A stretch of 64,000 bases of DNA from the NCBI GenBank assembly GCA_002383485.1, contig DFYY01000032.1, positions 78,891-142,890 on the forward strand, given 5' to 3'. Positions within the stretch are counted from its first letter, which is position 1; each line of letters begins with the position of its first letter. This DNA comes from Bacteroidales bacterium UBA4070. GTDB lineage: Bacteria; Bacteroidota; Bacteroidia; Bacteroidales; VadinHA17. Below the pieces are notes generated by a model. That model was not told the origin of the DNA and did no database searches. It saw only the letters and a program-made list of their open reading frames with translations. Positions 39,132-58,660 of this stretch are shown one piece after another. Both the position numbers and the translations under genes were made by a program.

Positions 39132-39159
39132 GAGTAAGGCGAACGATAATATTATAGCA

Positions 39160-39188
39160 CAGAGGCTGCCTGACAAGGGCAGCCTCTG
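39160..39188. terminator. Bidirectional-position hairpin between convergent genes
   Basis: Perfect 11-bp stem CAGAGGCTGCC-TGACAAG-GGCAGCCTCTG between the stops at 39131 (+) and 39234 (-). Confidence 0.6.
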
Positions 39189-39233
39189 ATTGTATCGTGA
39201 ACATTGCACAAATCCCCGGCGCAGTGAAAAGGT

Positions 39234-41384
39234 CTATTCCAATCGTCTGATCGTCCGCTGTGCTTCAAGACGAGCCTGCCCGGAGAATCTCTCGTTATCT
39301 GCAATGATTTTGTTGCATATATCAATAATATGCTGCCTCTTGTAACTGTGGCTGAACCAGCCCAGGGCTTCTATAAGAGAAACCTCCAGCTTCTCTCCGG
39401 GAGCAGTGAAGAGGTAGTCGCACAGGGGCTCAACGATAGGATGATAGGTCAGGTTACGTAGTGACCTGATGTCAAAAATTTTGTTCTTTTCCGTCTCGTC
39501 AGGACCTGCTATGGTCTCCAGGGTCTCACTGCACGACTTTGCTCTTTTTTCAATATTGGCGGCAACCTGCCTGTAAATTGTGCCGAGGTGGTTGGAGGTA
39601 TCAAGACCTGCAAACCTCTTGTCAAGCTCCTGCATCAGCAGCTCCCGGTCGAAATATGCCAGTGCGTCAACAGCCTGATAATTCACTCTTTTTGATACAT
39701 TTGGGTCTGTTACTGACTTTATCAGGGCAGATGCCAGCCGGGGATCACCCGATTCCTGACAGTATACTGCAGCAAAACGCCTGGCAAGTTCATATGAATC
39801 ATCAAGTGCAGCAGCCGTAACCCTTATGAAGTTGTCGTCCCGCAACAGCGCGAGAAGTTTCATGGCAGAAACACGTGTGGTAGCAAATGGAGAACTGAAG
39901 TACTTTTCCGCAAGCAGGCCGCTTATGCCGGGATAGCCATTCGAATTAAGATGCCACAGGGCCCAGCTCTGAACGTCAGGATGAGGATAGGAGGCCAGTT
40001 TGATCAGCCTTTTGTTGTTACCTGCGCTCTGCATCATTTTGTCTGCATTCAGTTTCGGATCAGATGTGGCAAACCTGAATGCGGGGTCCCCAATTATATG
40101 TGATTCAAGGAGGCAGACCATGCGGTTCCACTCCCCCACCCTCATGCCGTAGGAGAGCAAGCCCACCATCTCATCCGGGAATTTATCCTGCAGCGAGTTG
40201 ACGGTGTTTGCCTGCGCAGCCACAGTACGCCCGGGACCAAATACATATGCGCCGGAAATAAACTCATCCACATGGAAGGAACCGTTGAAGCAGGCGTCGA
40301 ACATGATGAACCGTGTCTTGACATCATATTTCATTACATCTGCAGAGATAATATCCATGTCGGCAAACCAGGCCGAATCCTTTTCCGACTGTATTTTCTC
40401 GTTTGCCCCCTTAAACCATGAATCAGGGACATCCAGCCACTCCATATACCGCTTCTTGGCATCCGTTGTGTCTTTGGCACCCCTTACCTTTGAGCGGAGG
40501 TAAAATTTAATGCTTTCAATATTCTGCTGGACACCGTTTGCAGCCGCCTCAGAACCGGCCAGCTGGGCGTCGGTTGACCCATGGTGATGCAGAAGAGCAA
40601 TGTCAGTCTGCTCAATGGTCATGGCTGACAAAAGGCGGTTCTTGATATGCTCATCAAAGGTGTAATCAATATACTCGAGACCGTTGTCCTGCCTGTTCAG
40701 CTGCGGAAACTGCTGAAGCAGTGCAGCCTTCTCATCCATCCTGGCAGTCATCGATTCGGAGTTATAGCCATGACCGGCAAAGAACAGAACCTCATCAACC
40801 CTGTCGGAGTTTCTGTGTGCCTCAACCACCTTGGTCATGTAGGCCCTGAGCTTCGAGCCGTCACTGTCACCCGGTATCCGTATGCGGCCGCTGTAGATAT
40901 CCGGGGTGAGTACCTGTACCGATGACGGATTCAAACTGTAATAGTAATAGAGCCCGTTGGTGTCTGCTCTGAGAAAATCAAACTGCAGGTCAAAATCCTC
41001 ATAGAAGCGGTCAGATGCTATTGACGACCTGTGCCATGGATACCTCTCCTGGTCCATCTTAAATGCCGATGTGAGATGCTGGGCATCACGGAGCATAGGC
41101 ACCGGGATATCTCCGATAAAGACAGCACCCTCGAATCCTTTGTTGGAGGTGTACATCTCGCGCAGAAGCAGCCTGATTGAGTCAGGGTGTTGCCAGCGGT
41201 CCTCAATGATCACTGCATCCAGGCCTTCTGCCTGAAGGACGGCAGCATACTGTTTGATCTCATCGCCTGCTGTATTCAGCGAATGGCTGTCAGCGATTAT
41301 TGCATATTCCCCTGCAAGGGGCTGAGAAAGTGATGGCGTTAACAGGGTCAACGCCATCACTGCTGTAACAATTAAGTTCTTCAT
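39234..41384 (-). CDS. Secreted peptidase-C25 (gingipain-fold, clan CD) homologue fused to C-terminal HEAT-like repeats; last gene of the ECF operon
   Basis: Signal peptide MKNLIVTAVMALTLLTPSLSQP. C25-like order of blocks: YAIIAD...GAVFIGDIPVPML...SDRFYEDFD...PDIYSGRIRIP...LLHHHGS (His)...FIMFDACFNGSF (Cys)...VAAQANTVNS...IIGDPAFRF. The C-terminal ~270 aa contain HEAT-like helical repeats (PDVQSWALWHL, TRVSAMKLLALL, DSYELARRFAAVY, DPNVSKRVNYQAVDALAYF). No T9SS C-terminal domain. Confidence 0.6.
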   Translation of the reverse strand: MKNLIVTAVMALTLLTPSLSQPLAGEYAIIADSHSLNTAGDEIKQYAAVLQAEGLDAVIIEDRWQHPDSIRLLLREMYTSNKGFEGAVFIGDIPVPMLRDAQHLTSAFKMDQERYPWHRSSIASDRFYEDFDLQFDFLRADTNGLYYYYSLNPSSVQVLTPDIYSGRIRIPGDSDGSKLRAYMTKVVEAHRNSDRVDEVLFFAGHGYNSESMTARMDEKAALLQQFPQLNRQDNGLEYIDYTFDEHIKNRLLSAMTIEQTDIALLHHHGSTDAQLAGSEAAANGVQQNIESIKFYLRSKVRGAKDTTDAKKRYMEWLDVPDSWFKGANEKIQSEKDSAWFADMDIISADVMKYDVKTRFIMFDACFNGSFHVDEFISGAYVFGPGRTVAAQANTVNSLQDKFPDEMVGLLSYGMRVGEWNRMVCLLESHIIGDPAFRFATSDPKLNADKMMQSAGNNKRLIKLASYPHPDVQSWALWHLNSNGYPGISGLLAEKYFSSPFATTRVSAMKLLALLRDDNFIRVTAAALDDSYELARRFAAVYCQESGDPRLASALIKSVTDPNVSKRVNYQAVDALAYFDRELLMQELDKRFAGLDTSNHLGTIYRQVAANIEKRAKSCSETLETIAGPDETEKNKIFDIRSLRNLTYHPIVEPLCDYLFTAPGEKLEVSLIEALGWFSHSYKRQHIIDICNKIIADNERFSGQARLEAQRTIRRLE

Positions 41385-41388
41385 AATT

Positions 41389-42957
41389 TCAGAATGTAAG
41401 TCCCGTCACAACATTTACCATGTAACCTGACAGGTTTCCGGCTTCGGAACCGGGAGCCGCAGCCCACCAGCCCTGTGGCAATAGAAACAATGAGTTTATA
41501 AATTTGTTGCCGATGACGGACTTCTCAAGCCTCACGGAAACTACCGCACTTATTACGTCCGCCTTTGAGATAAAATAATCATGGTAAACCATATCTGGTA
41601 CACTCAACGGTTGTACCACATATGAAATGTCGCTACCCAGGTTCATACGGTAACCTGCATCCAGCCCTGGTGTAACCATAAGGGTACCAACCCTGAAAAG
41701 CTTGCGCGCAAAGATGTTTACACCGATATTGAATATGTTATAAAAACCGTAGCTCTGAACCGGGAAATGTTCGGTTGAAAAATACTTCGCATCAAACGCT
41801 CCACCCACTTTCAGGTCGATGTTGTGGTCGCTGTCAAAGACCAGGTACGAGTACTTCAGTTCACCTGCAATATCATTTATCATGTGCTTATTCTCGATCC
41901 AGCTGACAGTTGCGAGCGAGTCATAGGAATAGGTGCCCTTGTTGACGGTGTATGACCGCTGGAGGATCTCGTCTCCGCTGACCGACAGATAGGAACCCGT
42001 AAGGGATAAGATGTGTTGTGCCTTTTCGCCGGAAATTCTCAGTAACCCTGACAGAGAGATGTCAGTAGTTGAGGCTATACCGTTGATGAGTCTCAATGAA
42101 CTTCCGGTTCTGGCCTCCTCCGTGAAGTGGTCATAGCTGAGTTCACCAATCAAATAAATGTCGCCGCCATCATGTGATGCCTGAAGCGCACCGGCATAAC
42201 CCCTTCCGGTGTACCATTGAGTATAGGAAGAGATGTTTGGCTCCTGCCTGTAATAACCCAGCCCAAGGAAGAGAAAGAGGTTCTGGTTCCAGTTGCCTTC
42301 GACACTGTAAGACAGCTCATCGCTGGTGTTATAAACTGATCCTGACAGTCCGACTTTTGTTTTCCCAAAGTCATAGGTAATACCAGGCGTAACTTTAAGC
42401 AAGGAAATCGTATTCTTGTTGCGAGGGTCCTTCTGTTTGGCCCCAACAGCTGTCAGATACTCAACGCCAACAGCAAGGCTTATGCGATCGTTCATAATGT
42501 AGCTCATCTTCCCCTCCATGTCAAAACTTTCCATGGACTGCCTGGCTGACACAGTATCTCCGAGGAGATAAGGGTTCAGAGTGTTGAACATCATGGTTCC
42601 GTTATAGTTTACCCCTTCATAGTCAGAGTTGGAGTATCCGAATGACCCGGAAAGTATGATCTTTTCAAGCTGTTTGTATCCCTTTATGGCAACATTGTAG
42701 GCCGATGTCAGATCAGGCTGCTGGATGAATCTGATTTCGTTATTCTGCCAGGTGTACCCTGCCTGCACAAGGCTATGGTTGCCGAAGTCATAATCAGCCA
42801 GTGCTGCCGGATTCGATGTGGCTGTCCAGGGAAGAACTACCGGCAATGTCTCAAACAGACTGCTGCCTTCCGGCACATTTTCCTGGGCCGCCGCACCTGA
42901 GCCCATCCCTGCTGCTAACAAAGAGGTCACAATAATTATTAAGGTTAATTTATTCAT
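41389..42957 (-). CDS. Outer-membrane beta-barrel protein of unknown function
   Basis: Signal peptide (MNKLTLIIIVTSLLAAGMGSGAAAQE). Alternating amphipathic beta-strand pattern rich in Y/G/S/N, with a C-terminal aromatic (…VVTGLTF). It recalls the DUF6850-type barrels annotated next to TonB receptors in Bacteroidales; this is from memory and was not searched. Confidence 0.6.
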   Translation of the reverse strand: MNKLTLIIIVTSLLAAGMGSGAAAQENVPEGSSLFETLPVVLPWTATSNPAALADYDFGNHSLVQAGYTWQNNEIRFIQQPDLTSAYNVAIKGYKQLEKIILSGSFGYSNSDYEGVNYNGTMMFNTLNPYLLGDTVSARQSMESFDMEGKMSYIMNDRISLAVGVEYLTAVGAKQKDPRNKNTISLLKVTPGITYDFGKTKVGLSGSVYNTSDELSYSVEGNWNQNLFLFLGLGYYRQEPNISSYTQWYTGRGYAGALQASHDGGDIYLIGELSYDHFTEEARTGSSLRLINGIASTTDISLSGLLRISGEKAQHILSLTGSYLSVSGDEILQRSYTVNKGTYSYDSLATVSWIENKHMINDIAGELKYSYLVFDSDHNIDLKVGGAFDAKYFSTEHFPVQSYGFYNIFNIGVNIFARKLFRVGTLMVTPGLDAGYRMNLGSDISYVVQPLSVPDMVYHDYFISKADVISAVVSVRLEKSVIGNKFINSLFLLPQGWWAAAPGSEAGNLSGYMVNVVTGLTF

Positions 42958-42986
42958 CAGCCGGATCAGTTCAATTGATTTAAGGC

Positions 42987-43025
42987 AGTGTGCCGGACCT
43001 AGGGTTTACCGGTATCCGGCACACT
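42987..43025 (-). promoter_or_regulatory. Intercistronic perfect 11-bp stem-loop inside the operon
   Basis: AGTGTGCCGGA-(17 nt)-TCCGGCACACT lies in the 82-nt gap between the lipoprotein gene (ends 43040) and the beta-barrel gene (starts 42957). No U-tract follows it on the minus strand. Confidence 0.5.
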
Positions 43026-43039
43026 TCACCTGATGTAAA

Positions 43040-44245
43040 CTACAGATCCACGGAAGTTGGATGGACAAAAGGAGTCGGAGTCTGATCGATGAGGAAGTCG
43101 TTTGTCGAGTTATTTGTATCCTTATAGAATACCTTTCCATCGAGAATCTTCTCTACTTTCCTTCTCACGCTCTTGCTGTTGTAGGTGGCAAGGCTCCATG
43201 TCCAGCCTGCGTCAACCGATGTAGGAAGACGCTTGAATCTCTTGTCCTCCTCCGGACGATTGCATTCAACACCGTCGATCACCCAGTCTTTATGTACCAT
43301 AAAATATTGAGTGGCTGATGTTGTGCCCGGTTTCGTCATGAAATTATCCGGATTGGAGACAAAACTTGCATAGTTAAGACCGGTAGGGAGTCTGAACAAC
43401 ACAACTGCAGCGCCATTCACTGAATGGAGCCAGTCATACATTGAAGCAGAGGTTGTATACATTACGATCAGGTTAGCAGCCTGCGGAGAATCAGTGTCTT
43501 TACCCGGAGCTTCAATGAAAGCCTCAAACTGTGCGCTTGCCATGTTCACGGGTGAGAGTGGGTTACCCAGAGGGTCTGTCTTATGGTCGATTGCGTCCAT
43601 TGCGAGGACGACACTTGTCCTGGGCTGTATCGGGTACTGCTGTCCGGTGCCGGGAAACATCAACGCATGGTAAGCTATCGGCAGCCTGTCCATGATTGAT
43701 CCATCCTGATTGACCCACACGGTAGGAGAAGAGCCAATTGGCTCAAGCAGGCCGATGCACAGGCCGTCAAGATAGACAACCTCGTCACTGTTGTTGTAGA
43801 TCTCGTGGAACTGATCCGAATAGTAATTACTCCCTGCCTCAGTCTTGGAACCTGTGTAATAGATCTCCTTGAGCACCAGTCCGCCCGCCTTGGAGGAGGC
43901 AATCATATGGATCTCCCAGTTGTTTACGGCACTGGTATTGACGGTAAGGTTCTCGGTTATACCGTTGAAGTAGAAATCATCTGTCTCCAGGGTGGCCTGT
44001 ATTGTGTACATCCCCTCCTCCAGTTCTGTCTGCGCAACACCGGTTGCGTCAGTTGTTGCAGTAATTTCGATCCCTGTCAGGGTATTCTTGACTGTGATCT
44101 CCTGGCTGGCTACTTTCTCTGTCCCGTATCCTTCAGGATAGAAGACTGTTATAGAGACATCATAGAGCGTGGCGCCCTTTTCGCAGGAGGTGAGTGCCAC
44201 CACGCCTGCAATCATCATGACTAATAATAACGGAAACTTTCTCAT
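43040..44245 (-). CDS. Surface/periplasmic lipoprotein with N-terminal Ig/CarboxypepD_reg-like sandwich and lamin-tail-domain-like segment
   Basis: Lipobox (MRKFPLLLVMMIAGVVALTSCEKG). YDVSITVFYPEGY...ITVKNTLTG...TDATGVAQTELEEGMYTIQA resembles a CarboxypepD_reg/Ig fold. LVLKEIYYTGS...DQFHEIYNNSDEVVYLDGLCIG resembles the LTD pattern (InEi...ElyN.s...v.L.G). It recalls DUF4876; not searched. Confidence 0.55.
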   Translation of the reverse strand: MRKFPLLLVMMIAGVVALTSCEKGATLYDVSITVFYPEGYGTEKVASQEITVKNTLTGIEITATTDATGVAQTELEEGMYTIQATLETDDFYFNGITENLTVNTSAVNNWEIHMIASSKAGGLVLKEIYYTGSKTEAGSNYYSDQFHEIYNNSDEVVYLDGLCIGLLEPIGSSPTVWVNQDGSIMDRLPIAYHALMFPGTGQQYPIQPRTSVVLAMDAIDHKTDPLGNPLSPVNMASAQFEAFIEAPGKDTDSPQAANLIVMYTTSASMYDWLHSVNGAAVVLFRLPTGLNYASFVSNPDNFMTKPGTTSATQYFMVHKDWVIDGVECNRPEEDKRFKRLPTSVDAGWTWSLATYNSKSVRRKVEKILDGKVFYKDTNNSTNDFLIDQTPTPFVHPTSVDL

Positions 44246-44261
44246 ACTCTGTAATTATTGG

Positions 44262-47150
44262 TTAGAACTTAATTTTCAACTCTGCCCCGAAATAGAGCGG
44301 CGGATTCCTGCGTGCATATACTTCCGGCGCTCCGCCGCTCTGTTTCAGCAGTGGATTATGGTTGGTAATGTTATTTGCATAGAAAGAAATATTGACGTAA
44401 TCTGTTATCTCCTTGGTAAGCTTGAAGTTTATGACAAAATAGGGCGGATAGCCCGTTTCCGCAAAGTACCAGGGTGTATTATAACGCTTTATCAGGTCAG
44501 AATAGGGTTTTGCTACAGCTTGTTCACGGTCAAAGTCATGATATACCATCTGCCTGTCATAATAGCCAACCGGGTCAACGTATTTTGGATAGATCTTGTC
44601 CGCATAAACATCATCAACAGGAGTAGTGGTATAGAACAGGGGATTGCCCTCAGGATCATCCCAGACATTCTGGTCTCGGTCCATCCAAATTATCTGGGTT
44701 GTCACGGTTGCAACCATCCGGAGCTCCCTGATATGGGTAATGGTTCTGATATTTGTATTGAAACGCTTGTCTATGCTTCCGTAGCCGGCAGGATAAACAG
44801 CCACCAGAGGGTACTCCCTTCCTCCGATGCTTCCTGAGGAAGGCTTTGTTAAGTCCTCCACTATTGACTGTCTTTTTACCATCATCCATGCTCCGTCAAC
44901 AATAAAGGATGTCCTGAGTGCCTGCACCGTCCCCAGGTCAAGAGTAAACTCAACTCCTTTTTTCGTTGTCATGGTCCCGTTTTGGGGATAGGTAAAACTG
45001 ACAAAGACTGTATCATTTGAGACCGGCAGCTCTATTTCCGTTCCGCTTACAGGATCGGTATAGAATACTCCGGCCCCTGGCACAAAATAGAGATCAAGGC
45101 CATTTTGTGAAGGCTGGGTGTAGCGGTTAAAAATAAAATTCTCATAGTAAGATTCAAAGCTGAACCCATTCTCCATTTTTTCGGAGTAGAGGGTGACATT
45201 GATGTCAATATCACTGACGGTCATATCAAAACCGGCCTCCAGTTTCCTGTTGACTGCAGGCGCAAGGCTCTCGTTGCGGGGATTTTCGAAGATCTTTGTC
45301 GTCACCACGAACAGGCCGCTCTGGGCAACAGGGTCATAATAGCTTAACCCAGTCTTGTCCCAGTAGGCTTTATCCGGATAGAGATAGAGGAGTGAAGGGG
45401 CTTTTGAGAAGAGGCCGTACCCTCCTCTTAAGGCCAGGTGGGATATGGCATTTCCCCCCTTGTCAATGATGGTATATCTTGCATTGAATCTCGGGTCAAG
45501 CATTGTTGTCTCTTCCTCTGAGCTGAAGAGTCCGTCAGGCTGAACATTGGTGAACCTTATTCCTGCCTGCAGGTCCAGCCTTGTTTTTCCGATAGGTATA
45601 GCCAGGTTCTCCTCGGCATAATAGGCCAGCTGGCCCAGCGAGGGGATATCCTTATATGACCTTGGTCTGGCATCCGTTCCTCCTGTAGGCACCGGTGGCC
45701 GTGCAAGATTATAAATCCTTCCAAGTCCGTCATTTCCATATAACTTCCATTCAACACCTGCCATAAGGTTGTTGACCATGTTGCCGATGTTGAAAGAGCG
45801 GTTGCCGGAGAGCCTGGCATTGTAGTAGTATGGTCTGCCGTCAATCGTAAGATCGCTGATGTAGGATGAAGGAAGGATGGGTACCTCATTCTCTCCCGGC
45901 TCAAGGGCAACCGGCTGGGGCTGGGCTCCTGAAGGTATCTCCTCAAGCGTCACCTCATGGCCTACCTGATGCTGGATGTCTCCCGACATCATCAGGCTAA
46001 GGTTTGTCAGCAGCAGTGAGTTGAGTGCCCATTTGGTGTTCAGATTGAATGATATCCCCTTGTCTCTTGCTTCATAATCCTCGACATCAAGCATATCAGG
46101 ATCCTGCTTGTTTACATCAACTGTCTGATACCCTCTTGCGGAAAGACTTAATGTCAGAGGTTTTGAGTCCCGGAGAAGGGTATTGTTGTAAATGATGCCG
46201 CCGTTAATCCTGTTGAAAGTCTTGTATTTTATCCTGATGTCGTCAAATGACTGGGTATAGTCAAAATCGAGATTAATGGTTCCTGCCTTATCGCCAAGTG
46301 ACAGTCCCTTCCCTGCATAGAACTGTTTTATGCCCGGATCGGTTTTTATCTTGGCAGTGAATGGTGTTTTGCCCTTCTTCATTGTGACCTTGACAGCACC
46401 GCTCAGCATGTCACCGTTTTCAACACCTGCGATGCCTCTGACAACCTCTATGGTTTCGATGTTGTCAACAGAAATCTGGCGTACATCCGTTCCTCCGGAT
46501 GCTGAGGTGGCAAAGCTTGCAGTAATTCCCGTGGAGGCACCTGTGGTCTTCAGGAACTGCATGTTGGCATCGTTTGAGACAGGTGCACCGTCAACCACAA
46601 GGAGCGTCCCGAGGCTGGCCATATTATCCCCCACATAGCCGTCCTTACGAATGATCTCCCTGACAGTCAGCTGCTTCGGCTTTGAAAGGTCAGGGTTCAG
46701 CGCCGTCTGTCCGGGCAGCAGCTGAAGCACATCGGAGAGATCGGTAGGCTGAACATGCTGAATGGCAGCCTGCTCTATCACTGACCCGGAAGCGATGCGC
46801 CGTCCCTCCTTTGCCGTGACAACGACATCTTCTATTGCCAGGGTGGCTTCATCAATCATGATGGTCACCTTTTCCTCGCTCAACGGGAAGGTGACACTGT
46901 GCTCATGCTGTATAAACCCCAGGCATGAGACCACCAGGGTATAGTTCCCGGGAGGGACAGTCTTCAGAACAAAATCTCCGTTATCTGTTGTCGTTGCCCA
47001 GATATTAAGCTCCTTCACAACGACGGTAGCCATTGTCACCGGTTCCCCGGTGGTCCGGCAGATGATCTTTCCCTGCATCGAAGGCTTTGTCTGGGCTGAT
47101 AGTGCCAGGGCCGCAAAAATCAATACCAGGATGAAAAGAAGCTTTTTCAA
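44262..47150 (-). CDS. TonB-dependent outer-membrane receptor with N-terminal CarboxypepD_reg domain (no STN signalling domain, no SusD partner)
   Basis: Signal peptide, then GKIICRTTGEPVTMATVVV...TDNGDFVLKTVPPGNYTLVVSCLGF (CarboxypepD_reg). Plug blocks (DLSDVLQLLPGQ, IETIEVVRGIAGVENG), a long beta-barrel and the terminal ...GAELKIKF. Confidence 0.85.
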   Translation of the reverse strand: MKKLLFILVLIFAALALSAQTKPSMQGKIICRTTGEPVTMATVVVKELNIWATTTDNGDFVLKTVPPGNYTLVVSCLGFIQHEHSVTFPLSEEKVTIMIDEATLAIEDVVVTAKEGRRIASGSVIEQAAIQHVQPTDLSDVLQLLPGQTALNPDLSKPKQLTVREIIRKDGYVGDNMASLGTLLVVDGAPVSNDANMQFLKTTGASTGITASFATSASGGTDVRQISVDNIETIEVVRGIAGVENGDMLSGAVKVTMKKGKTPFTAKIKTDPGIKQFYAGKGLSLGDKAGTINLDFDYTQSFDDIRIKYKTFNRINGGIIYNNTLLRDSKPLTLSLSARGYQTVDVNKQDPDMLDVEDYEARDKGISFNLNTKWALNSLLLTNLSLMMSGDIQHQVGHEVTLEEIPSGAQPQPVALEPGENEVPILPSSYISDLTIDGRPYYYNARLSGNRSFNIGNMVNNLMAGVEWKLYGNDGLGRIYNLARPPVPTGGTDARPRSYKDIPSLGQLAYYAEENLAIPIGKTRLDLQAGIRFTNVQPDGLFSSEEETTMLDPRFNARYTIIDKGGNAISHLALRGGYGLFSKAPSLLYLYPDKAYWDKTGLSYYDPVAQSGLFVVTTKIFENPRNESLAPAVNRKLEAGFDMTVSDIDINVTLYSEKMENGFSFESYYENFIFNRYTQPSQNGLDLYFVPGAGVFYTDPVSGTEIELPVSNDTVFVSFTYPQNGTMTTKKGVEFTLDLGTVQALRTSFIVDGAWMMVKRQSIVEDLTKPSSGSIGGREYPLVAVYPAGYGSIDKRFNTNIRTITHIRELRMVATVTTQIIWMDRDQNVWDDPEGNPLFYTTTPVDDVYADKIYPKYVDPVGYYDRQMVYHDFDREQAVAKPYSDLIKRYNTPWYFAETGYPPYFVINFKLTKEITDYVNISFYANNITNHNPLLKQSGGAPEVYARRNPPLYFGAELKIKF

Positions 47151-47154
47151 GGCA

Positions 47155-48402
47155 TCATTTTTTTGCTGGTGGTTTCACCTTACTGAACTTATTCGGAAAG
47201 AACTGCGTGGCTATCAGTCCGTAGATGCCAGTCACCGCGGTTATAAGGAGATCAGGAATGTTTGCCTTCCATGACCACCCCCGCCTCGTTATTAGCAGCA
47301 CAGCGGCTATGAGCGCAATAAGGTTGAAGATCAGCCACCTGATGCCGGGTGAAGGTTTGAAGTAGAACCTCACAAAGGAGGAATTTTCATCCCTCATTCT
47401 TGTCTCGAAGGGAAATAATGTGGCCAGCATTTCCCCTTCCGGTCTCTCATAGAGGCCTTCCCATTTCTCCCCATGTGTTCCCACTACCTGATACATATCG
47501 TCAACAGCTATTGCCTCGTACCAGTTTTCACCCAGAATGGTGAGGCATTTGTTGAACAGGTCTGCGCTCAGCCTGAATGTGTGAATGGCAGGATTAAAAC
47601 CGTCAACGGGCAGCCGCTGAAGGTCATAAACCTCATCCATTATCACAAATATACCCTGATTTCTTGTAAAAACATAACAATAATACTCTTTGCTTCTGAG
47701 GTCAACCGCTTCAATATAAACAATGTCAAGCTTTTCCGGGGTTTCGATTCTAACCACGTAAGGTTCTCCCTTTATCATCTTCACATGGAAGAGAGACCCC
47801 TCATTGTCAGTGATAAAGTAGCCCTCATCACATGATTTTCTTGTTGTCGGCAATCCGGCAATGAGATTTGCCGGAAAGATAAATCCTTCAGCCGTGAGCG
47901 CATCGGTAAAGAGACTGCTCTTCTCCTCATTGATCTCATTGGTTCTGGCAACGATGAACTCCATTCGTTTTTCAATGCGGAAATAATCCTCGGGCATGGC
48001 CAGGTTCACCTTTCCGCTCTGAGATTCCAGCAAGGGCCAGAGCGTTGGGACCGGGGCATCCAGCCTTTTCGGCGTATAGCGGTAGAACGATGAAGCCCTG
48101 GCTATCGAGGGTGTCTCCATCTTCACTCCCTTTATGGTATCGGGCATGGTTCCGTCAGCCATAAGCTGCCGGTAGAACATGAAGGGAAGCGCTTGTTCGT
48201 ATTCGTCAGAGGTATATTCCTTTCCTTCAGGAGATTTCCTGGTACTACCGTCGACAACGATAAAGTCTTCGGTGATGCAGCTGTAAAAGATATTGGGTGA
48301 TCTGGGCACCTTTTCAAAGATTGTCCAGAACAATGAGGGCAACACGATGGAGGTAACCAGTATGCCAATAGCCACAAGTATGTATCTGCTGAACTTTATC
48401 AT
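47155..48402 (-). CDS. Membrane protein with N-terminal TM, ~330-aa extracytoplasmic domain and two C-terminal TM helices (ABC-transporter accessory candidate)
   Basis: I prefer the start at MIKFSRYILVAIGILVTSIV (ATG 48402), 1 nt after the permease stop, over the listed 48450. C-terminal TM helices IRWLIFNLIALIAAVLLI and LLITAVTGIYGLIATQFF. It recalls DUF4857; not searched. Confidence 0.55.
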   Translation of the reverse strand: MIKFSRYILVAIGILVTSIVLPSLFWTIFEKVPRSPNIFYSCITEDFIVVDGSTRKSPEGKEYTSDEYEQALPFMFYRQLMADGTMPDTIKGVKMETPSIARASSFYRYTPKRLDAPVPTLWPLLESQSGKVNLAMPEDYFRIEKRMEFIVARTNEINEEKSSLFTDALTAEGFIFPANLIAGLPTTRKSCDEGYFITDNEGSLFHVKMIKGEPYVVRIETPEKLDIVYIEAVDLRSKEYYCYVFTRNQGIFVIMDEVYDLQRLPVDGFNPAIHTFRLSADLFNKCLTILGENWYEAIAVDDMYQVVGTHGEKWEGLYERPEGEMLATLFPFETRMRDENSSFVRFYFKPSPGIRWLIFNLIALIAAVLLITRRGWSWKANIPDLLITAVTGIYGLIATQFFPNKFSKVKPPAKK

Positions 48403-48403
48403 C

Positions 48404-49072
48404 TTACATCTCTCCTTTCCTGAATCTGTAACCTGAAAACAACACGACAAAACTCAACAGCAGTGTGATGAGTGCCAGGGGCATAAGTACCGGTCTGAAT
48501 GCGCCTATCGATGCCCCGGTGTAGAAGACAGTGACAAAACCTGCCGCCACCGCGGTATACAGTCCCCTGTAGATCCACATCGGCTCAAGCAGAATCAGGG
48601 CAACCAGGAAGTATGTTGCCATCCCTCCAAGGAACCATGGCATCATGGTAAGGAGGGAGGCCCTGATGATGTTTGAGGGAAAGAAGATGGCGCTGCCAGC
48701 GGTGAACAATACGAGGACTACCAGAAACACTGTTAAAATGACAAGCGCTCCAAATGTGTGCATCCATATCAGAACACCGTTCTCAGAGACCGGCAAATGA
48801 AAGGTAAGCTTGATCCGCTTGTTGACCGTTTCGGGGAAATACTGGGCTATTGCAATGGCCAGCCCTATAATAAACGGGAGGAACTTGAGGATACTGAAAA
48901 AAACAACTCCCCTGAAAAGGAACGAGTACCAGTAATTGGCAGCGTCAACAAACAGAATATCATGACGTACCTTGAGGAATATGTTGATCAGTGCTACGAG
49001 ACTCAGGCCCAAAGCAATCCAGACTACCAGTCTGATCTTGATCCATTCTTTGTATATTAATGATTTCAGCAT
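48404..49072 (-). CDS. ABC-2-type transporter permease-like membrane protein
   Basis: 222 aa with about six hydrophobic helices. Located directly downstream of the ABC ATPase gene (17-nt gap). Confidence 0.6.
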   Translation of the reverse strand: MLKSLIYKEWIKIRLVVWIALGLSLVALINIFLKVRHDILFVDAANYWYSFLFRGVVFFSILKFLPFIIGLAIAIAQYFPETVNKRIKLTFHLPVSENGVLIWMHTFGALVILTVFLVVLVLFTAGSAIFFPSNIIRASLLTMMPWFLGGMATYFLVALILLEPMWIYRGLYTAVAAGFVTVFYTGASIGAFRPVLMPLALITLLLSFVVLFSGYRFRKGEM

Positions 49073-49089
49073 AGAGTTAAAATTCAGGG

Positions 49090-49974
49090 TTAATACTTGC
49101 GGGTCAGTCCGATAAATGCATCCTCAAGTGACATCTTTTTCTCTTCGAATGCGGTGTAGGTTATCCCCTTTGCGTTAAGGTATCCCTTTACTTCATCTTC
49201 CTTTGAGTAGGTGTAGAACTCAATTTTGTCCTTCACTTTATCGATGTTGACGGCAATTCCGTCCATATCGATTTCTTCATCCGGCGAAGTAAGCGTTATA
49301 TTGAACTGCCTGAAGCCGGACATGAACTGGCCGATCGGTTGCTGGGCAAGTATCTTGTTGTAATCCATTATCATGACGTCGTCTATCAGCCTCTCCATGT
49401 CCTGTATGATGTGGGAAGTCACAAAGACGGTTTTGTGTTCGGCCTTGGCATACTCACGCATATAGTCAATGAAGAGTCTCCTGTAACCCGGATCGAGTCC
49501 CATGGAAAAGTCGTCAAGGATCAGCAGGTCAGGGTCCTGTGCAAGGATAAGCCCCAATGCCACCTGTGAGCGCTGGCCACATGACATCGTTGAAATCTTC
49601 TGTTTCGGAGTTACCTTGAGCTTTGACATAAGCTCCCAGTAAGGGGCACTGTTCCAGTTGGGATAAAAACCTGAATAGAACTTTTCTATCTGATGGATAT
49701 TCATAAACGAATACTGCACGTGCCCCTCGATCAGGAAGCCGATCCTCCTTTTTGTTTCAGGAGTGAGAAGCTGGGTGTTTTCTCCGTAGATAAGGCACTC
49801 CCCGGAGTTGGGCTGCAAAAAGCCGTTGAGAATATTGATAGTCGTCGATTTGCCTGTGCCGTTCTTGCCAAGGAGGCCCAGTATCTTTCCCTCCTCCACG
49901 TTGAAGCTCAGGTTCTCATAGACAAGCTTCCGTCCGTAATAGTGGGTGAGGTTTTTGCACTCTATTGCATACAT
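49090..49974 (-). CDS. ABC transporter ATP-binding protein with atypical Walker B (LILDD) and signature (MSCGQ) motifs
   Basis: Walker A GKNGTGKST, signature MSCGQRSQ, Walker B DLLILDDFSMGLD, H-loop VTSHII, plus a ~70-aa C-terminal extra domain. Confidence 0.85.
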   Translation of the reverse strand: MYAIECKNLTHYYGRKLVYENLSFNVEEGKILGLLGKNGTGKSTTINILNGFLQPNSGECLIYGENTQLLTPETKRRIGFLIEGHVQYSFMNIHQIEKFYSGFYPNWNSAPYWELMSKLKVTPKQKISTMSCGQRSQVALGLILAQDPDLLILDDFSMGLDPGYRRLFIDYMREYAKAEHKTVFVTSHIIQDMERLIDDVMIMDYNKILAQQPIGQFMSGFRQFNITLTSPDEEIDMDGIAVNIDKVKDKIEFYTYSKEDEVKGYLNAKGITYTAFEEKKMSLEDAFIGLTRKY

Positions 49975-50002
49975 ATAATTGCTCTCAGTTAGGGGTTAGT
50001 AG

Positions 50003-51919
50003 TTATTTCACAATGCCTGGATCCGGGAATCTGAAGGGATTGGCCAGCTTTCCTGTGCGACCGTCGGAATAATGGAAGACAAGTGTATCGGCGTTTACGG
50101 CAGCGAATATGTTTTCCGGCACCGTTACCGTGTCAACGAAATGGATCACCCCCAGTTCAGTCCCGACGGAATCAAGCATTGTCTCAAAGGCAATCACCCC
50201 GCTGTCATTGGAGAGATGGCTGAAGAGGTAGCTATACCTGGCCTTGTGGGCCGTATTCGGGCCCATGGTTACTATGTACTGAGAGACCACGTCATCGGAG
50301 AAGTTTGAGAAGCTGTTGAACCGTGAGCTTGTGGGAACAAACATTGCCGAGGCATAATCAGCTTTTGATAGTTTTCCTGGCTGTTCTTCGAAGGTGATTA
50401 CCTTATAGGGCAGCTTGACATTGAATTCATTGTCATTAGCCGTAAAGGTCAGTTTTTTTGATTCGATGGCCTGGACCAGGGACTCTTTACCGGGCTCCTT
50501 GCCTTGCGGAAAGTAAATTCGTACTATCACCGGGCATGCAAAGTCGCTCTGGTATCCGCATGCATCTGTCTTCTGGTCGAGAAGGTGCTGAAGGTATGTA
50601 GCATCGAGCGGATCAAAGAACTTGTCGATTGTGAGTGTGTAGTAGACCACCGAGTCAACATCTCGTGCCACAGGCTCAATAATTCTCTTGACCGGCACGA
50701 AAAGTAGCTGCTGCAGCTTCTCCTCATTATATCTGGTGGTATCATAAAGAATGTGCACCGAATGGCTGGCCACGTAGGTGGAAACACCGTAGATGCCTTC
50801 CACTCTTCTCATCTGATTGGCAAATGCAGTTGAGCTGCCGAAGCACTTGATGTTCTTAAGCCCTGACATTTCAAAAAGACCTGCATTTTCAATCTGTTCG
50901 GGTGTGCCCCACTTCTGGTCTATGGTTGGAAGTTCAAAGAGAGTACCTGCAAGAATTCCCAGTATTATAAGAGCACCAAGGACTACCGCAGGAAGCCACT
51001 TCATATTCTTTTTATTTATCTGAAGGGTGTCTTTCTCAGGACATACATGGAGGCAGTCGCCGCACAGAGTGCAGTCAGTATGGGTTACCTTCTTCATGGT
51101 AGCGACGTCAATACCCTGGGGGCATTTTTCCGAGCAGAGACCACAGTCAATACAAGTTGATGTATTACGGGTTATATGAACCGGATCGGGCCATACCTTT
51201 TTCATCCGCGCCACCTCGAGGATATATCCCCCGGCTGTGATCACCACAAGTGGATAAATATATGATATATCAAGCCCGATCAGAACCAGGATCACGTAGA
51301 GCCCCATCACACCCAGGAACCACCATGAGAATTTGAATATGGCTGACAATGCTCCAAGAGGGCATAGATACCTGCACCATAAAAGTCTGATGAAAAGGGA
51401 TCCTATTACGAGGGCAGCTATTGCGAGCAGGGCCCACATCAGCGCAACATCGGAATCAAATCCCGAAGCAACGGCATAGTAAGGATCGAACTTCTTGCAG
51501 AACAGCTCGCTCGACTTAAGTGTGAAATAAAATGTTACAAAGAGCAGGACGTACTTCGGAAGCCGGAGAGCATAGTCGGCGAATCCTGTGGGAGTATATC
51601 TTACCTTAAGCCTGTCGCCCAGCTTACCTATCCATTCTCCTATTGTGCCCAGTGGACATATGTAACCGCAGAAGAGTCTTGAGAAAAGGACAATTCCGAT
51701 GAACAGGACAACCCCCATCATTATCTGTGTGCTTGTCATTGAGCATGAAAGGGAATCCATCGTGATATATGATCCGAGAGCCTGTAACCCTCCGAAGGGA
51801 CAGTATGCCTCAAAATCAGGTGCGTAGGCTTTATCAAACAACAGACGGAAGCCCATGAAAACAAGAATTCCAATGATAGCAAATTGATAAATTAATTTGT
51901 ACCAGTTTTGCCTTTTCAT
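50003..51919 (-). CDS. Membrane-bound polyferredoxin of the NapH/MauN/CcoG type with a ~300-aa C-terminal extension
   Basis: TM helices carry CPFGG, CGYICPLG and CRYLCPLG motifs. Two ferredoxin clusters (CIDCGLCSEKCP, CTLCGDCLHVCP) are followed by another TM helix (WLPAVVLGALIILGILAG) and a soluble domain. That domain begins with a beta-alpha-beta-beta-alpha-beta-looking segment (FEMSGLKNIKCFGSSTAFANQMRRVEGIYGVSTYVASHSVHILYD). Confidence 0.75.
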   Translation of the reverse strand: MKRQNWYKLIYQFAIIGILVFMGFRLLFDKAYAPDFEAYCPFGGLQALGSYITMDSLSCSMTSTQIMMGVVLFIGIVLFSRLFCGYICPLGTIGEWIGKLGDRLKVRYTPTGFADYALRLPKYVLLFVTFYFTLKSSELFCKKFDPYYAVASGFDSDVALMWALLAIAALVIGSLFIRLLWCRYLCPLGALSAIFKFSWWFLGVMGLYVILVLIGLDISYIYPLVVITAGGYILEVARMKKVWPDPVHITRNTSTCIDCGLCSEKCPQGIDVATMKKVTHTDCTLCGDCLHVCPEKDTLQINKKNMKWLPAVVLGALIILGILAGTLFELPTIDQKWGTPEQIENAGLFEMSGLKNIKCFGSSTAFANQMRRVEGIYGVSTYVASHSVHILYDTTRYNEEKLQQLLFVPVKRIIEPVARDVDSVVYYTLTIDKFFDPLDATYLQHLLDQKTDACGYQSDFACPVIVRIYFPQGKEPGKESLVQAIESKKLTFTANDNEFNVKLPYKVITFEEQPGKLSKADYASAMFVPTSSRFNSFSNFSDDVVSQYIVTMGPNTAHKARYSYLFSHLSNDSGVIAFETMLDSVGTELGVIHFVDTVTVPENIFAAVNADTLVFHYSDGRTGKLANPFRFPDPGIVK

Positions 51920-51940
51920 AAAATCAGGTATAGTATTAGG

Positions 51941-52276
51941 TTAGTTTGTTGAGTTCAGGTTTCTGAATAACTGGTCATGGAGGAAGTCCGAATTCATATG
52001 ATGTGACTCCATCAACTCCACCAGCGCCTTGTGCGACGATGCCTCTTCCTCCGGTCTGAGGCCTTTATAGCCTTTCACTCCGAGAAAAATACCAAGGGAG
52101 CAGTAGAGGACAAAGATAATGGCTGAAACAAGTATCCGGGAAGCCATAGGCATCGACCTGAAACTGCCCTCCTTTTGCAATTCTATTTTCAGCAGAACCT
52201 CGTCTGCAAATGTTTCGGGTACCGTGATTTGCCTTCCTTTCATTACTCCGGCAAGTTCACTGATCTGGTCTGACAT
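51941..52276 (-). CDS. Small single-pass membrane protein (regulatory-module member, function unknown)
   Basis: 111 aa with a central TM helix (ILVSAIIFVLYCSLGIFLGV). It sits between the Spy-like protein gene and the polyferredoxin gene. Confidence 0.45.
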   Translation of the reverse strand: MSDQISELAGVMKGRQITVPETFADEVLLKIELQKEGSFRSMPMASRILVSAIIFVLYCSLGIFLGVKGYKGLRPEEEASSHKALVELMESHHMNSDFLHDQLFRNLNSTN

Positions 52277-52340
52277 CTTTTTTATTCTTTCTATTAAAAA
52301 GACAACCTGTAAGGCAAAAGCCTGCGGTCAATACAAAAAT

Positions 52341-52865
52341 TTATTTCCCGATGTTGTTGATTCGTTCCTTTCTGGGGCAGTCCTTCTTGTTACAGGTCTT
52401 GCACTGATCATCGAGCTGCATCATTTTCTTGAAGATGACAGTAAGCCTTTGTTGCTGCTCCTCATTGCAGATTCCCTTAAGATTCATGAAATAGTCTGTT
52501 GTGTGTCTCCTGAGTGAAGTGCTCAGGGTTCCAACCTTTCTCGCCAGGCTGTCGAGTACCTGTGGGTCACTGCTCTCCTTTGCTAGTTCCTCCATCATTG
52601 CGACATTGGTTTCGCACATCATATCAAAAACGATATTATATGTCCTGATGGTTCTGTCATTTTCCACAAGAACCTTCCTATACTGGGAATCACTAAGTCC
52701 AAGCTCCTTCCGGAGCAGGTCCATAGAGTTTATCACTCCGGTATCACCCCTGTTTTTTTCGTTTATGCCTTTCATTACAAAAAAAGTCACCGTTGCCGAG
52801 ATAATGACCAATAGCAAAACGAGGTTAAGCCACAACAAAATCCTGTTGGTTTTTTCAGGTATCAT
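52341..52865 (-). CDS. Membrane-anchored Spy/CpxP-like (LTXXQ-type) protein with Cys-rich C-terminus; anti-sigma/sensor candidate
   Basis: N-terminal TM helix (ILLWLNLVLLLVIISATVTFFV), a helical domain with LGLSDSQYRKVL and NEEQQQRLTVIF repeats, and the C-terminus CKTCNKKDCPRKE. It begins 4 nt after the sigma gene stop. Confidence 0.5.
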   Translation of the reverse strand: MIPEKTNRILLWLNLVLLLVIISATVTFFVMKGINEKNRGDTGVINSMDLLRKELGLSDSQYRKVLVENDRTIRTYNIVFDMMCETNVAMMEELAKESSDPQVLDSLARKVGTLSTSLRRHTTDYFMNLKGICNEEQQQRLTVIFKKMMQLDDQCKTCNKKDCPRKERINNIGK

Positions 52866-52869
52866 GATC

Positions 52870-53466
52870 TTAAGTTTTAATTTCCTTGTTATCCGGGTAG
52901 TCCGGGCAGCATTTTTTCCTCACATTCTCCCGACCACGGGAAAGAAGTGATTCGACGGAGGAGACTGATAGTCCGAGCACGGCGCTGATCTCCTTGTAGG
53001 ACATCTCCTCATAATAATAAAGTATAAAGGCTTTCTGCTGTCTTGCCGAAAGTGAAGCAACTGCTGCCGAAAGCATCTGTTGTCTTTCCACCGCCTCCAT
53101 TCTCTCCCCCGGGTTATCTTCAGAGTGAGGTACCGGTTCTGCACCACCAGGGTTGTCATGTCTGAAAATCGATTCGATCTGCTGAATTGACCGGAACAGA
53201 ATGTTCTGTGATCTCTTAATGTGATTGATCGACTTGTTAAGCGATATCCGGTATAGCCAGAATGAGATGTTCTGCTCGTTTCTAAGACTGGCTACAGAAC
53301 GGAAAGTCTCAATAAAAACATCCTGGGCAATGTCCTCCGCATCTTCCCTCGACTGCAAAACCTTATAGCAGGTATTCAGCACCAGGTCCTGATACCTTGA
53401 TATCAGATGACGCATGGCATTGTTATCACCTCTGATAACAGCCTTTACCAGTTCCTGATCATTCAT
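52870..53466 (-). CDS. ECF-type sigma-70 family factor heading the 14-kb operon
   Basis: I prefer the start at MNDQELVKAVIRGDNNAMRHLISRY (M13 of the listed ORF). Region 2 DAEDIAQDVFIETF and region 4 LSARQQKAFILYYYEEMSYKEISAVLGLSVSSVESLLSRGRENV. Confidence 0.9.
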   Translation of the reverse strand: MNDQELVKAVIRGDNNAMRHLISRYQDLVLNTCYKVLQSREDAEDIAQDVFIETFRSVASLRNEQNISFWLYRISLNKSINHIKRSQNILFRSIQQIESIFRHDNPGGAEPVPHSEDNPGERMEAVERQQMLSAAVASLSARQQKAFILYYYEEMSYKEISAVLGLSVSSVESLLSRGRENVRKKCCPDYPDNKEIKT

Positions 53467-53526
53467 CACAGACTGTGTACAGGAAAATAAGGGGGATAAC
53501 AACCTCCATTGAGGGAAAGATTTGAA

Positions 53527-53964
53527 CTATTTTTTTGTCCAGCCCTTTGACTCGATAAAGGCTTCTGCCTCTTCACGTGTCCTGAAGATGTCTCCATCTT
53601 CCTCCCACCATGTATCTCCATAGGCCAGGCCCATCTTATCGCATCCCTCGCCGGGAAGAAGGCTGACGCTCTCAATGGTTTTCATCTTTATCTTGTCTGA
53701 CTTGATAGCCGCCACCCTGCATTTTACGGACTTCCCAAGAGTAGTTCCATCAGCAAAATAGCCTACGATGATGCCATAGCACTCTACATCCTTATTCACC
53801 CAGGAGCCTACTTTTGCCTGGAGATCTTGATTCAGTGATACGCTGCCTGAAATCGCCTGGCTGGTATCTGAAGCCCTGACTCCTTCTCCCTCAGTGCTAC
53901 TACCGCATGATGTTATTAAAATCAAGGAGACAAGAACAACAAATAGATAAATTGATTTTTTCAT
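53527..53964 (-). CDS. Small lipoprotein of unknown function (possible first gene of the operon)
   Basis: Lipobox MKKSIYLFVVLVSLILITSCGSS. 145 aa, located 60 nt upstream of the sigma gene and downstream of the RND-operon terminator. Confidence 0.6.
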   Translation of the reverse strand: MKKSIYLFVVLVSLILITSCGSSTEGEGVRASDTSQAISGSVSLNQDLQAKVGSWVNKDVECYGIIVGYFADGTTLGKSVKCRVAAIKSDKIKMKTIESVSLLPGEGCDKMGLAYGDTWWEEDGDIFRTREEAEAFIESKGWTKK

Positions 53965-54037
53965 GATATGATAGGTTAGTTAAATGGTTCTTCCGGCCTT
54001 AAAAGTAGAAATTTTATCAAAACAAATGTTTTCATAA

Positions 54038-54075
54038 TAAAAAAATGGCAGAAAAGACATTTTCTCTCCTGCCAT
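54038..54075 (-). terminator. Rho-independent terminator of the RND efflux operon
   Basis: On the minus strand, ATGGCAG...CTGCCAT (an imperfect extended hairpin) is followed by TTTTTTT. It starts 29 nt after the stop at 54104. Confidence 0.7.
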
Positions 54076-54103
54076 CTGATGCATATTCCGGTAAGGGAAT
54101 GAA

Positions 54104-57552: not shown

Positions 57553-57578
57553 AATCCGGGATTATCTCTTGTTAATCA

Positions 57579-58631: not shown

Positions 58632-58660
58632 TGTATTCTGTTTTTATTATTGTTTTTCTG

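Follow-up and report, generated by a model that had tools for sequence, protein, structure and literature searches.

A polyferredoxin-bearing, sigma-factor-associated variant of a Bacteroidota TonB-dependent locus with a candidate role in iron or metal acquisition

To what kind of system does a block of twelve genes belong that places a TonB-dependent receptor beside an ATP-binding cassette (ABC) module, a membrane polyferredoxin and an extracytoplasmic function (ECF) sigma factor? The block lies within a 64-kb stretch of DNA from Bacteroidales bacterium UBA4070 (contig DFYY01000032.1, positions 78,891 to 142,890), which is called the window below. An initial annotation, made from the letters of the window, had read it as a single sigma-controlled machine whose parts match no known system. 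This was overstated: the core of the cluster is of the same kind as the Bacteroides thetaiotaomicron locus BT3625-33 and the Porphyromonas gingivalis locus PG1019-22, and one of its families, DUF4876, is a published candidate receptor lid with a structure. The window cluster is a polyferredoxin-bearing, putatively ECF-regulated variant of this iron-starvation-type TonB locus. We propose, with moderate confidence, that this lineage carries its own version of an envelope uptake system widespread in Bacteroidota, which would serve TonB-dependent, lid-assisted, reductive acquisition of iron or metal.

The gene block and its conserved core

In the list of open reading frames (ORFs), twelve consecutive minus-strand ORFs span positions 53964-39234 of the window. 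Their coordinates and all 11 gaps between them (60, 4, 64, 21, 28, 17, 1, 4, 16, 82 and 4 nt) agree exactly with the initial annotation. For most genes the start was supported by gene callers on identical contigs, which come from hydrocarbon-degrading methanogenic metagenomes and from one metagenome-assembled genome (MAG). The start of the receptor gene g09 was chosen by its signal peptide, which is present only with a TTG start at 47150. The genes are listed from the first to the last.

g01, 53527..53964, minus strand: small lipoprotein, 145 aa, with the lipobox Cys and two further Cys that are invariant in the alignment (C62, C108)
g02, 52870..53466, minus strand: ECF-type sigma-70 factor, 198 aa (Sigma70_r2, Sigma70_r4_2; TIGR02937 at 110.5 bits, cutoff 42.9)
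g03, 52341..52865, minus strand: membrane-anchored protein, probably of the CpxP/Spy/ZraP/CnrX superfamily, with one N-terminal transmembrane helix; putative periplasmic sensor
g04, 51941..52276, minus strand: small single-pass membrane protein, 111 aa, putative anti-sigma factor by topology and conserved motifs
g05, 50003..51919, minus strand: NapH/NosR/CcoG-like membrane polyferredoxin, 638 aa (Fer4_5, Fer4_10)
g06, 49090..49974, minus strand: ABC ATPase of the ABC-2/exporter type (ABC_tran)
g07, 48404..49072, minus strand: permease, 222 aa, with five strong hydrophobic segments
g08, 47155..48402, minus strand: DUF4857 membrane protein, 415 aa (PF16149, E 6e-82)
g09, 44262..47150, minus strand: non-SusC TonB-dependent receptor, 962 aa from the TTG start (CarbopepD_reg_2, Plug)
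g10, 43040..44245, minus strand: DUF4876 lipoprotein, candidate surface lid of the receptor (PF16215, E 3e-46)
g11, 41389..42957, minus strand: DUF6850 predicted outer-membrane beta-barrel (PF21012, E 6e-67)
g12, 39234..41384, minus strand: exported protein, 716 aa, whose N-terminal domain is gingipain/caspase-like and whose C-terminal part carries HEAT repeats (HEAT_2)

Most of the original domain calls held, namely the ECF sigma factor, the NapH-like Fer4_5 protein with about 300 extra residues, the ABC ATPase, the receptor, HEAT_2 and, below threshold, Peptidase_C25. No LTD domain as such was detected in g10. The proteins that had been left as a large-ectodomain protein, an LTD-like lipoprotein and an orphan barrel belong to the Pfam families DUF4857, DUF4876 and DUF6850, respectively.

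To assess synteny, we searched one genome per species with a DUF4857 profile and obtained 79 loci, which belong to Rikenellaceae-like MAGs, Prolixibacteraceae, Draconibacterium, Maribellus and Tangfeifania; the counts given here use the 40 loci with full flanks. The closest relatives of the window carry the labels uncultured Rikenellaceae or Rikenella. The ATPase, permease, DUF4857, receptor and DUF4876 genes are each present in 40/40 loci. DUF6850 was found by tblastn in 37/40; of the other three loci, one is Pfam-positive, and in two there is an ORF that corresponds in size and position. The remaining genes are found in 28 (polyferredoxin), 20 (g01), 17 (g12), 15 (g03) and 12 (sigma factor) of the 40 loci. 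The locus is not one fixed twelve-gene machine, as first envisaged: its conserved core consists of six genes (receptor, DUF4876, DUF6850, ATPase, permease and DUF4857), and the remainder are variable accessories.

A lack of synteny in other genomes had been named beforehand as a refutation; the genes proved to be syntenic across many genomes, in two gene orders. The order sigma-polyferredoxin-ABC-receptor is found in Rikenellaceae-like genomes, whereas Prolixibacteraceae genomes have polyferredoxin-receptor-DUF4876-DUF6850-(accessory)-ABC. This difference favours selection on co-location over the inheritance of a frozen block. Free-living Bacteroidota from sediments and bioreactors have the system too.

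A distant DUF4857 representative led to six Bacteroides-type loci, all of which carry the six-gene core. At the place of the polyferredoxin, 6/6 have a protein of about 197 aa together with a PepSY_TM_like_2 protein; none of the twelve window proteins matches PepSY_TM in Pfam. Replacement of the polyferredoxin by this PepSY_TM-like pair suggests that the slot may hold a swappable membrane reductase, as in XusABC. In one Bacteroides-type locus (L088), feoAB lies one gene away.

Receptor, transporter, redox and regulatory modules

The receptor g09 scores 52.6 bits against the SusC model TIGR04056 (cutoff 368.25) and has no STN domain in Pfam. Pfam and NCBIfam searches of the block gave no match to the SusD family or FecR, so that the absence of SusD, FecR and STN noted at the outset is borne out. 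After a gap of 16 nt the receptor gene is followed by the DUF4876 gene g10, and the same pairing is found in 40/40 full-length loci. The DUF4876 profile matches a crystal structure annotated as "putative lipoprotein" (PDB 4Q1Z, E 9e-70), and g10 has no match to DUF4374 (XusB). The third outer-membrane protein, g11, has a signal peptide and an invariant C-terminal Phe; DUF6850 is always placed after DUF4876 and has no sequence relative in the PDB. DUF4876 has been proposed as the lid of non-SusC receptors; AlphaFold-Multimer predicts that it covers the receptor, and the proximity of the two genes is conserved in 59-81 genera (10.1101/2023.03.17.533168). Homology, synteny and this published modelling indicate a non-SusC receptor that works with the surface lipoprotein g10, probably as its lid, in TonB-dependent import. 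In one locus (L084:4324-6773), two tandem DUF4876 genes follow the receptor, as reported for BT3631/BT3632.

The nearest NCBIfam models of the ATPase g06 are PmtA, GldA, DrrA and NodI, all below cutoff. It is 69-97% identical across all loci and is always followed by g07 and g08. The gliding-motility system GldAFG was not matched (TIGR03522 at 129.5 bits, cutoff 402.6), and the auxiliary protein is DUF4857, not GldG. The permease g07 probably has six transmembrane helices and gave no match in Pfam (including relaxed thresholds), NCBIfam or the PDB. Its partner g08 consists of an N-terminal transmembrane helix, a beta-rich periplasmic domain of about 320 aa and C-terminal transmembrane helices. 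PDB sequence and profile searches with DUF4857 gave no informative match. The AlphaFold2 model of g08 has a predicted local distance difference test (pLDDT) score of 85.8; a Foldseek search of the PDB returned weak beta-propeller-like matches (TM-score below 0.3, E above 1e-3), too weak for this fold to be assigned.

An exhaustive DUF4857 profile search gave 682 family clusters, among them natural fusions of permease and DUF4857 (P0300, 663 aa; P0390, 649 aa), in which the permease part is 38% identical to g07 over 220 aa. These fusions indicate that g07 and g08 form one transporter unit. Together, the ATPase, the novel permease and DUF4857 make up one exporter-type inner-membrane transporter. 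It does not look like a binding-protein-dependent importer, and we speculate that it more likely extracts, recycles or exports something, such as a ligand, or acts as a mechanical transducer. Two loci have DUF4857 in duplicate around a single ATPase gene (L038:9331-14083, where the permease is duplicated too, and L037:4414-8505). Peptidase_S46 dipeptidyl-peptidase genes lie immediately upstream in both, and no polyferredoxin was detected in either.

The polyferredoxin g05 contains two CX3CP motifs, a 2x[4Fe-4S] domain with two complete CxxCxxCxxxCP motifs, a further transmembrane helix and a C-terminal domain of about 300 aa in which C359 and C462 are invariant in the alignment. Its NCBIfam scores are far from those of named families (NosR, 45 bits with a cutoff of 1000; NapH, 51 with 213; CcoG TIGR02745, 24.5 with 316.7). 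In the AlphaFold2 model the C-terminal domain is built of tandem ferredoxin-like (HMA-like) units with a pLDDT of 70-90, and Foldseek returned weak tandem ferredoxin-fold/HMA matches only. Hydropathy and charge distribution suggest an inside N-terminus, a cytoplasmic Fe-S domain and a periplasmic C-terminal domain. The three energy inputs that had been proposed for the locus are visible in the sequence as the Plug domain of the receptor, the Walker and signature motifs of the ATPase and the two 4Fe-4S motifs of g05. A literature search that combined polyferredoxin with TonB in Bacteroidetes turned up no paper.

Orthologs 76-78% identical to g05 stand alone in three other loci (L094:7187-9106, L095:10001-11920 and L096:10001-11923). 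They sit between a resistance-nodulation-division (RND) operon with a PG0541-family protein and EF-G2, the same flanks as in the window, and lack g01, the sigma triad, the ABC module and the receptor. A polyferredoxin dedicated to the system was therefore rejected. A metagenome scan with the polyferredoxin as anchor gave 24 informative loci, of which 16 carry core genes; g01 accompanies the polyferredoxin in 16/16 cluster contexts and 0/8 stand-alone contexts. Cluster-bearing relatives are both closer to g05 (81-85% identical) and more distant (56-63%; L092 shares the flanks of the window) than the stand-alone clade (72-80%), so that a history in which the other genes were lost and the polyferredoxin was kept seems simpler.

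At the start of the block the picture differs from the ECF-sigma-headed operon first described. The first gene is that of the small lipoprotein g01, which lies behind a conserved sigma-A-like motif.

53965..54042, minus strand: candidate promoter region of g01, with the Bacteroidetes sigma-A-like motif TTTG ... TAnnTTTT

Across 10 related loci, including one that lacks the sigma gene (L026), the -7-like box keeps an invariant TTTT with conserved flanks, and the motif is predicted to function as a promoter. The lipoprotein g01 belongs to no known family, and 18 homologs gave no Pfam match, relaxed thresholds included. Behind it, g03 has a helical domain and five Cys that are invariant in the alignment, including a C-terminal QCxxCNxxxC. 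The window protein matches Metal_resist below threshold (E 0.1) over the full length of the profile; 10 of 13 homologs match this Pfam family (best E 1.3e-6) and 7 of 13 match LTXXQ. A PDB search with g03 gave no match to CnrX, ZraP or Spy. The small protein g04 has an N-terminal part of about 45 aa with a conserved PxxFADxVMxRI, a transmembrane segment and a tail with a conserved HH; it has no Pfam match at relaxed thresholds and is a predicted anti-sigma factor. The protein at the g04 position of another locus (L055:5919-6323) begins with an HxxxCxxC zinc anti-sigma motif (HLKECETC), which window g04 lacks, and the comparison suggests that different anti-sigma N-termini may sit on a shared membrane/periplasmic part. 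A 132-aa ORF at 52119-52517 (plus strand), antisense to g03/g04, was called in place of g04 on one metagenome contig (L004) and is most likely a spurious call.

In L026 and L092, g01 lies directly before the polyferredoxin gene, the sigma gene is absent, and the remaining gene set and the upstream RND operon are kept; the sigma triad is thus an add-on to the system. Sigma control, as first claimed for the locus, could apply only to a minority of loci. In the window lineage, the parts list suggests that the ECF sigma factor g02, the putative anti-sigma factor g04 and the putative Cys-rich CpxP/CnrX-like sensor g03 would respond to a periplasmic metal or redox cue.

The last gene, g12, encodes one of the accessories. 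Its N-terminal domain has GHGYNS, HHHG and DACFNGS motifs that are invariant in the alignment, with 160 residues between the GHG and DAC motifs. The window protein scores 18.2 bits against Peptidase_C25 (cutoff 23). Among 13 homologs, all match HEAT_2, five match Peptidase_C25 (best E 3.5e-6) and four have HEAT_PBS-type repeats; PDB searches gave matches through the HEAT repeats only. Elsewhere the slot is often taken by BNR/Sortilin-like propellers sorted by the type IX secretion system (T9SS), and also by Big_2 and fimbrillin-like proteins. We infer that g12 is one of several interchangeable exported proteins at this position.

Known systems, proposed function and alternatives

In full-text literature, DUF4857 and DUF4876 turn up in only a handful of papers. 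The most informative reports induction by iron depletion of BT3625-33 (37-128-fold), PG1019-22 (20-214-fold) and BT1933-39 (3.5-7-fold), together with the Hmu system; iron chelation in that study does not separate the effects of iron from those of haem (PMC10434189). According to the same paper, BT3625-33 contains DUF4857, a hypothetical protein, an ABC ATPase, two PepSY-associated transmembrane proteins, a fimbrillin, two DUF4876 proteins and a receptor, and BT1933-39 and PG1019-22 are listed without an ABC or DUF4857 gene (PMC10434189). A DUF4876 gene was among those most strongly repressed under hemin excess (PMC10470040), and PG1019/1020 were up in a hemH mutant without heme in a 2026 paper that names them an uncharacterized transport system (PMC13096392).

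With BT3625-33 and PG1019-22 the window shares the receptor and DUF4876 and, with BT3625-33, the ABC ATPase, an unnamed permease and DUF4857 (families as listed in PMC10434189); with BT1933-39 it shares a HEAT-repeat protein. These loci differ in that PepSY_TM-like proteins replace the polyferredoxin, g01 and the triad of ECF sigma, sensor and anti-sigma are absent, the accessory surface proteins are fimbrillin-like, and DUF4857 is about 40% identical or less. A second close parallel is XusABC (BT2063-2065), which is induced by iron limitation, likewise lacks a binding-protein ABC importer and combines a non-SusC receptor with a surface lipoprotein and a redox protein of the inner membrane (PMC13142918). 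Its lid is DUF4374 and its reductase a PepSY protein, whereas the window has DUF4876 and an Fe-S polyferredoxin and, beyond XusABC, an ABC ATPase, a permease, DUF4857 and the second barrel DUF6850. In the XusABC model, the reduction of ferric siderophores is ascribed to PepSY proteins (PMC13142918).

Other systems fit less of the locus. The polyferredoxin resembles NapH, NosR-NosH and CcoG in its Fer4_5 CX3CP motifs and 2x[4Fe-4S] domain within a polytopic membrane protein and, for CcoG and NosR, in having an extra periplasmic domain, but that of the window is tandem ferredoxin/HMA-like and not FMN-binding or Ig-like (FixG_C). As in NosDFY, an ABC-2-like ATPase and permease with a periplasmic partner lie beside the polyferredoxin; however, DUF4857 is not a NosD-like beta-helix. 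NosZ, NosD and NosL gave no match among the twelve proteins (Pfam/NCBIfam), and with NosR and NapH below cutoff the Nos set fits as poorly as the initial annotation had judged. An ECF sigma factor beside a TonB-dependent receptor is reminiscent of Fec-type loci, but FecR and STN are missing. Sus-type loci share the N-terminal CarboxypepD_reg of the receptor and its paired surface lipoprotein; they differ in that the window has no SusD and its receptor scores below the SusC cutoff.

Reductive acquisition of a metal or metallophore, one of the roles first suggested for the locus, is the best-backed reading, with homologs that are induced by iron starvation and PepSY_TM-like proteins in the polyferredoxin slot. 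Judging from the expression data of the homologs, iron or an iron-bearing compound is the most likely substrate, which would be acquired under iron scarcity. Exchange of polyferredoxin and PepSY proteins and the analogy to Xus suggest a redox step in which g05 would take electrons from the cytoplasm through its two 4Fe-4S clusters and act on the imported substrate with its Cys-bearing periplasmic loops and HMA-like domain. Reduction of Fe(III) would free the metal for a separate ferrous transporter, as has been proposed for XusC, a PepSY protein. The small lipoprotein g01 may be a cluster-specific partner of the polyferredoxin.

Several observations weigh against this proposal. Eight of the 24 informative polyferredoxin-anchored loci carry no core genes, and the stand-alone orthologs, 72-80% identical to g05, lie between the same flanking genes; the polyferredoxin is a recruited module with a role independent of the rest. 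Conversely, in at least two core loci (L066, L071) no polyferredoxin lies within 10 kb, and no obvious substitute either. For g05, the model of the membrane and Fe-S part is poor (pLDDT below 50), and the suggested topology comes from hydropathy only. The ABC module is exporter-type and has no binding protein, so it does not account for the entry of the metal into the cell. Sensors of the CpxP/CnrX type are classically linked to metal excess or envelope stress and not to starvation. All reported iron regulation concerns distant homologs under other regulators, and mutants in BT1938/39 and BT3632/33 show no clear phenotype in 519 fitness experiments (10.1101/2023.03.17.533168).

A bolder version of the uptake proposal, which we consider unlikely, makes the core a two-membrane iron-extraction machine distinct from siderophore, haem and Feo pathways. 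The exporter-type ABC transporter would use the periplasmic domain of DUF4857 to act mechanically or to shuttle a ligand, DUF6850 would cooperate with the receptor and its lid, and the interchangeable electron conduit (polyferredoxin or PepSY-like pair) would complete the machine. Iron would be reduced and pulled from insoluble, mineral- or protein-bound sources captured by the variable surface proteins.

Uptake of haem or of another metallated tetrapyrrole or cofactor is doubtful. The receptor and lid would then import the cofactor, the redox module would reduce its bound metal so that it can be removed or handled, and the HEAT protein would be a tetrapyrrole-handling scaffold. P. gingivalis is a haem auxotroph in which the DUF4876 and receptor genes track haem availability, with induction in the hemH mutant without haem (PMC10470040, PMC13096392). 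The HEAT_PBS-type repeats in 4/13 g12 homologs and the co-induction with Hmu (PMC10434189) would also fit. However, Pfam and NCBIfam searches of the twelve proteins found no HmuY, HmuS, other haem-binding domain or recognised haem-binding motif, the system extends to the free-living Bacteroidota of sediments and bioreactors, and the chelation experiments leave iron and haem effects together (PMC10434189).

It is improbable that the locus serves stress or homeostasis of Cu, Ni, Co or Zn, with a CcoG-like reductase and an ABC module that removes or redistributes the metal under a CnrYXH-like switch in which g03 would sense periplasmic metal. In Cupriavidus metallidurans, CnrYXH is a metal-sensing ECF module of a sigma factor, a small single-pass anti-sigma factor and a membrane-anchored periplasmic sensor that controls an efflux pump. 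Its parts CnrH, CnrY and CnrX are mirrored by g02, the putative anti-sigma factor g04 and the putative CpxP/Spy/ZraP/CnrX-superfamily protein g03, which has a Metal_resist-like character; the window differs in gene order, in the five invariant Cys of its sensor with their C-terminal CxxCxxxxC and in its target, presumably an uptake cluster. The CcoG/NapH-like CX3CP motifs and HMA-like periplasmic domain of g05, the nearness of the ATPase to exporters and the RND efflux operon directly upstream in the window, L026 and L092 would also suit such a role. On the other hand, the receptor and lid are an import device within the invariant core, the sigma triad occurs in only 12-15/40 loci, the CcoG and NapH models score far below cutoff, and the sole expression data for homologs point to iron starvation. 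The window RND pump scores 771 bits with a multidrug-type model and 488 bits with the CusA/CzcA model, and a heavy-metal role for it was rejected on this best score.

Import of a protein or peptide and its periplasmic degradation by the clan-CD-like g12 (by S46 peptidases elsewhere), for example as piracy of iron proteins in the manner of Pectobacterium FusA/FusC, is very improbable. Invariant GHG and DAC motifs are typical of the His/Cys dyads of caspase/gingipain-type proteases, 5/13 homologs match Peptidase_C25, and S46 genes lie just upstream in L037 and L038. Against this, the putative catalytic residues H205 and C365 are separated by 160 residues, an unusually long distance for clan CD, window g12 falls below the Pfam cutoff, and the S46 neighbours are confined to two loci. 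The protease-processing idea raised at the outset depends on one accessory gene, present in 17/40 loci and elsewhere exchanged for T9SS BNR propellers, Big_2 or fimbrillin-like proteins that are not proteases.

Least probable of all is that ABC-DUF4857 and DUF6850 are biogenesis factors that extract DUF4876 or another surface protein and deliver it to the cell surface, like LolCDE plus the Slam-type translocators of receptor-associated lipoproteins in Neisseria: DUF6850 always follows the lipoprotein gene, the ABC module is exporter- or mechanotransducer-like with a large periplasmic partner, and no export machinery is known for Bacteroidota surface lipoproteins, but profile and PDB searches found no similarity to LolC/E, FtsX or Slam. 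BT1933-39 and PG1019-22, being listed without ABC and DUF4857, further suggest that the ABC module is not needed for placement of the lipoprotein (PMC10434189).

Boundaries, neighbouring genes and biological meaning

Both structures that had been described as bracketing the block are present.

54043..54077, minus strand: intrinsic terminator of the RND operon, the upstream boundary, with a 15-bp stem, a 5-nt loop and a T-run
39160..39188, no strand assigned: perfect 11-bp hairpin, the downstream boundary, between the convergent genes g12 and EF-G2 (CAGAGGCTGCC-cttgtca-GGCAGCCTCTG)

The terminator, read from 54077 to 54043, is the sole strong terminator-like site within 38900-54500. The remaining terminator-like matches are stems of 5-7 bp within genes, and their number (15) compares with 13.5 +/- 3.8 expected by chance. 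No tRNA, tmRNA or above-threshold Rfam family was found anywhere in the 64-kb window by tRNA and Rfam scans.

Upstream, the RND operon (54104-60632, minus strand) encodes an outer-membrane factor, a membrane-fusion protein, the RND pump and a 97-aa "transporter-associated" protein of the PG0541 family, whose start overlaps the stop of the pump gene. A probable TetR-type regulator precedes the operon; TetR_N was matched on the L094 and L095 ortholog, and the window protein has no NCBIfam match. The operon also flanks the polyferredoxin in genomes without the rest of the cluster: RND adjacency was seen only in the window, L001-L006, L026 and L092 and beside the stand-alone polyferredoxins of L094-L096. 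Downstream, the gene convergent with the cluster (36975-39131, plus strand) encodes a Bacteroidota EF-G2 paralog (NF058620 at 1194.7 bits, cutoff 1000). The canonical EF-G gene (33563-35665, minus strand) lies 1.3 kb beyond it and, judging by related contigs, adjoins rpsL-rpsG-fusA and the S10 ribosomal protein operon; a strong negative AT skew at about 18-34 kb is consistent with that operon.

Loci of this type were already on record in B. thetaiotaomicron and P. gingivalis, where they are not understood. Relative to the literature searched, the additions are a defined six-gene core, the fusions of permease and DUF4857, and the interchangeable redox module. Iron acquisition in Bacteroidota is poorly understood relative to that in Proteobacteria, and the B. 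thetaiotaomicron and P. gingivalis relatives are among the genes most strongly induced by iron starvation, yet have no assigned function. The core, the fusions and the interchangeable slot make the system approachable in existing model organisms and yield a testable model of reductive release. If the mechanism of ABC, DUF4857 and DUF6850 is new, it would be relevant to the microbial ecology of gut and mouth under nutritional immunity and to metal cycling in anoxic sediments and digesters, the habitat of the window organism.

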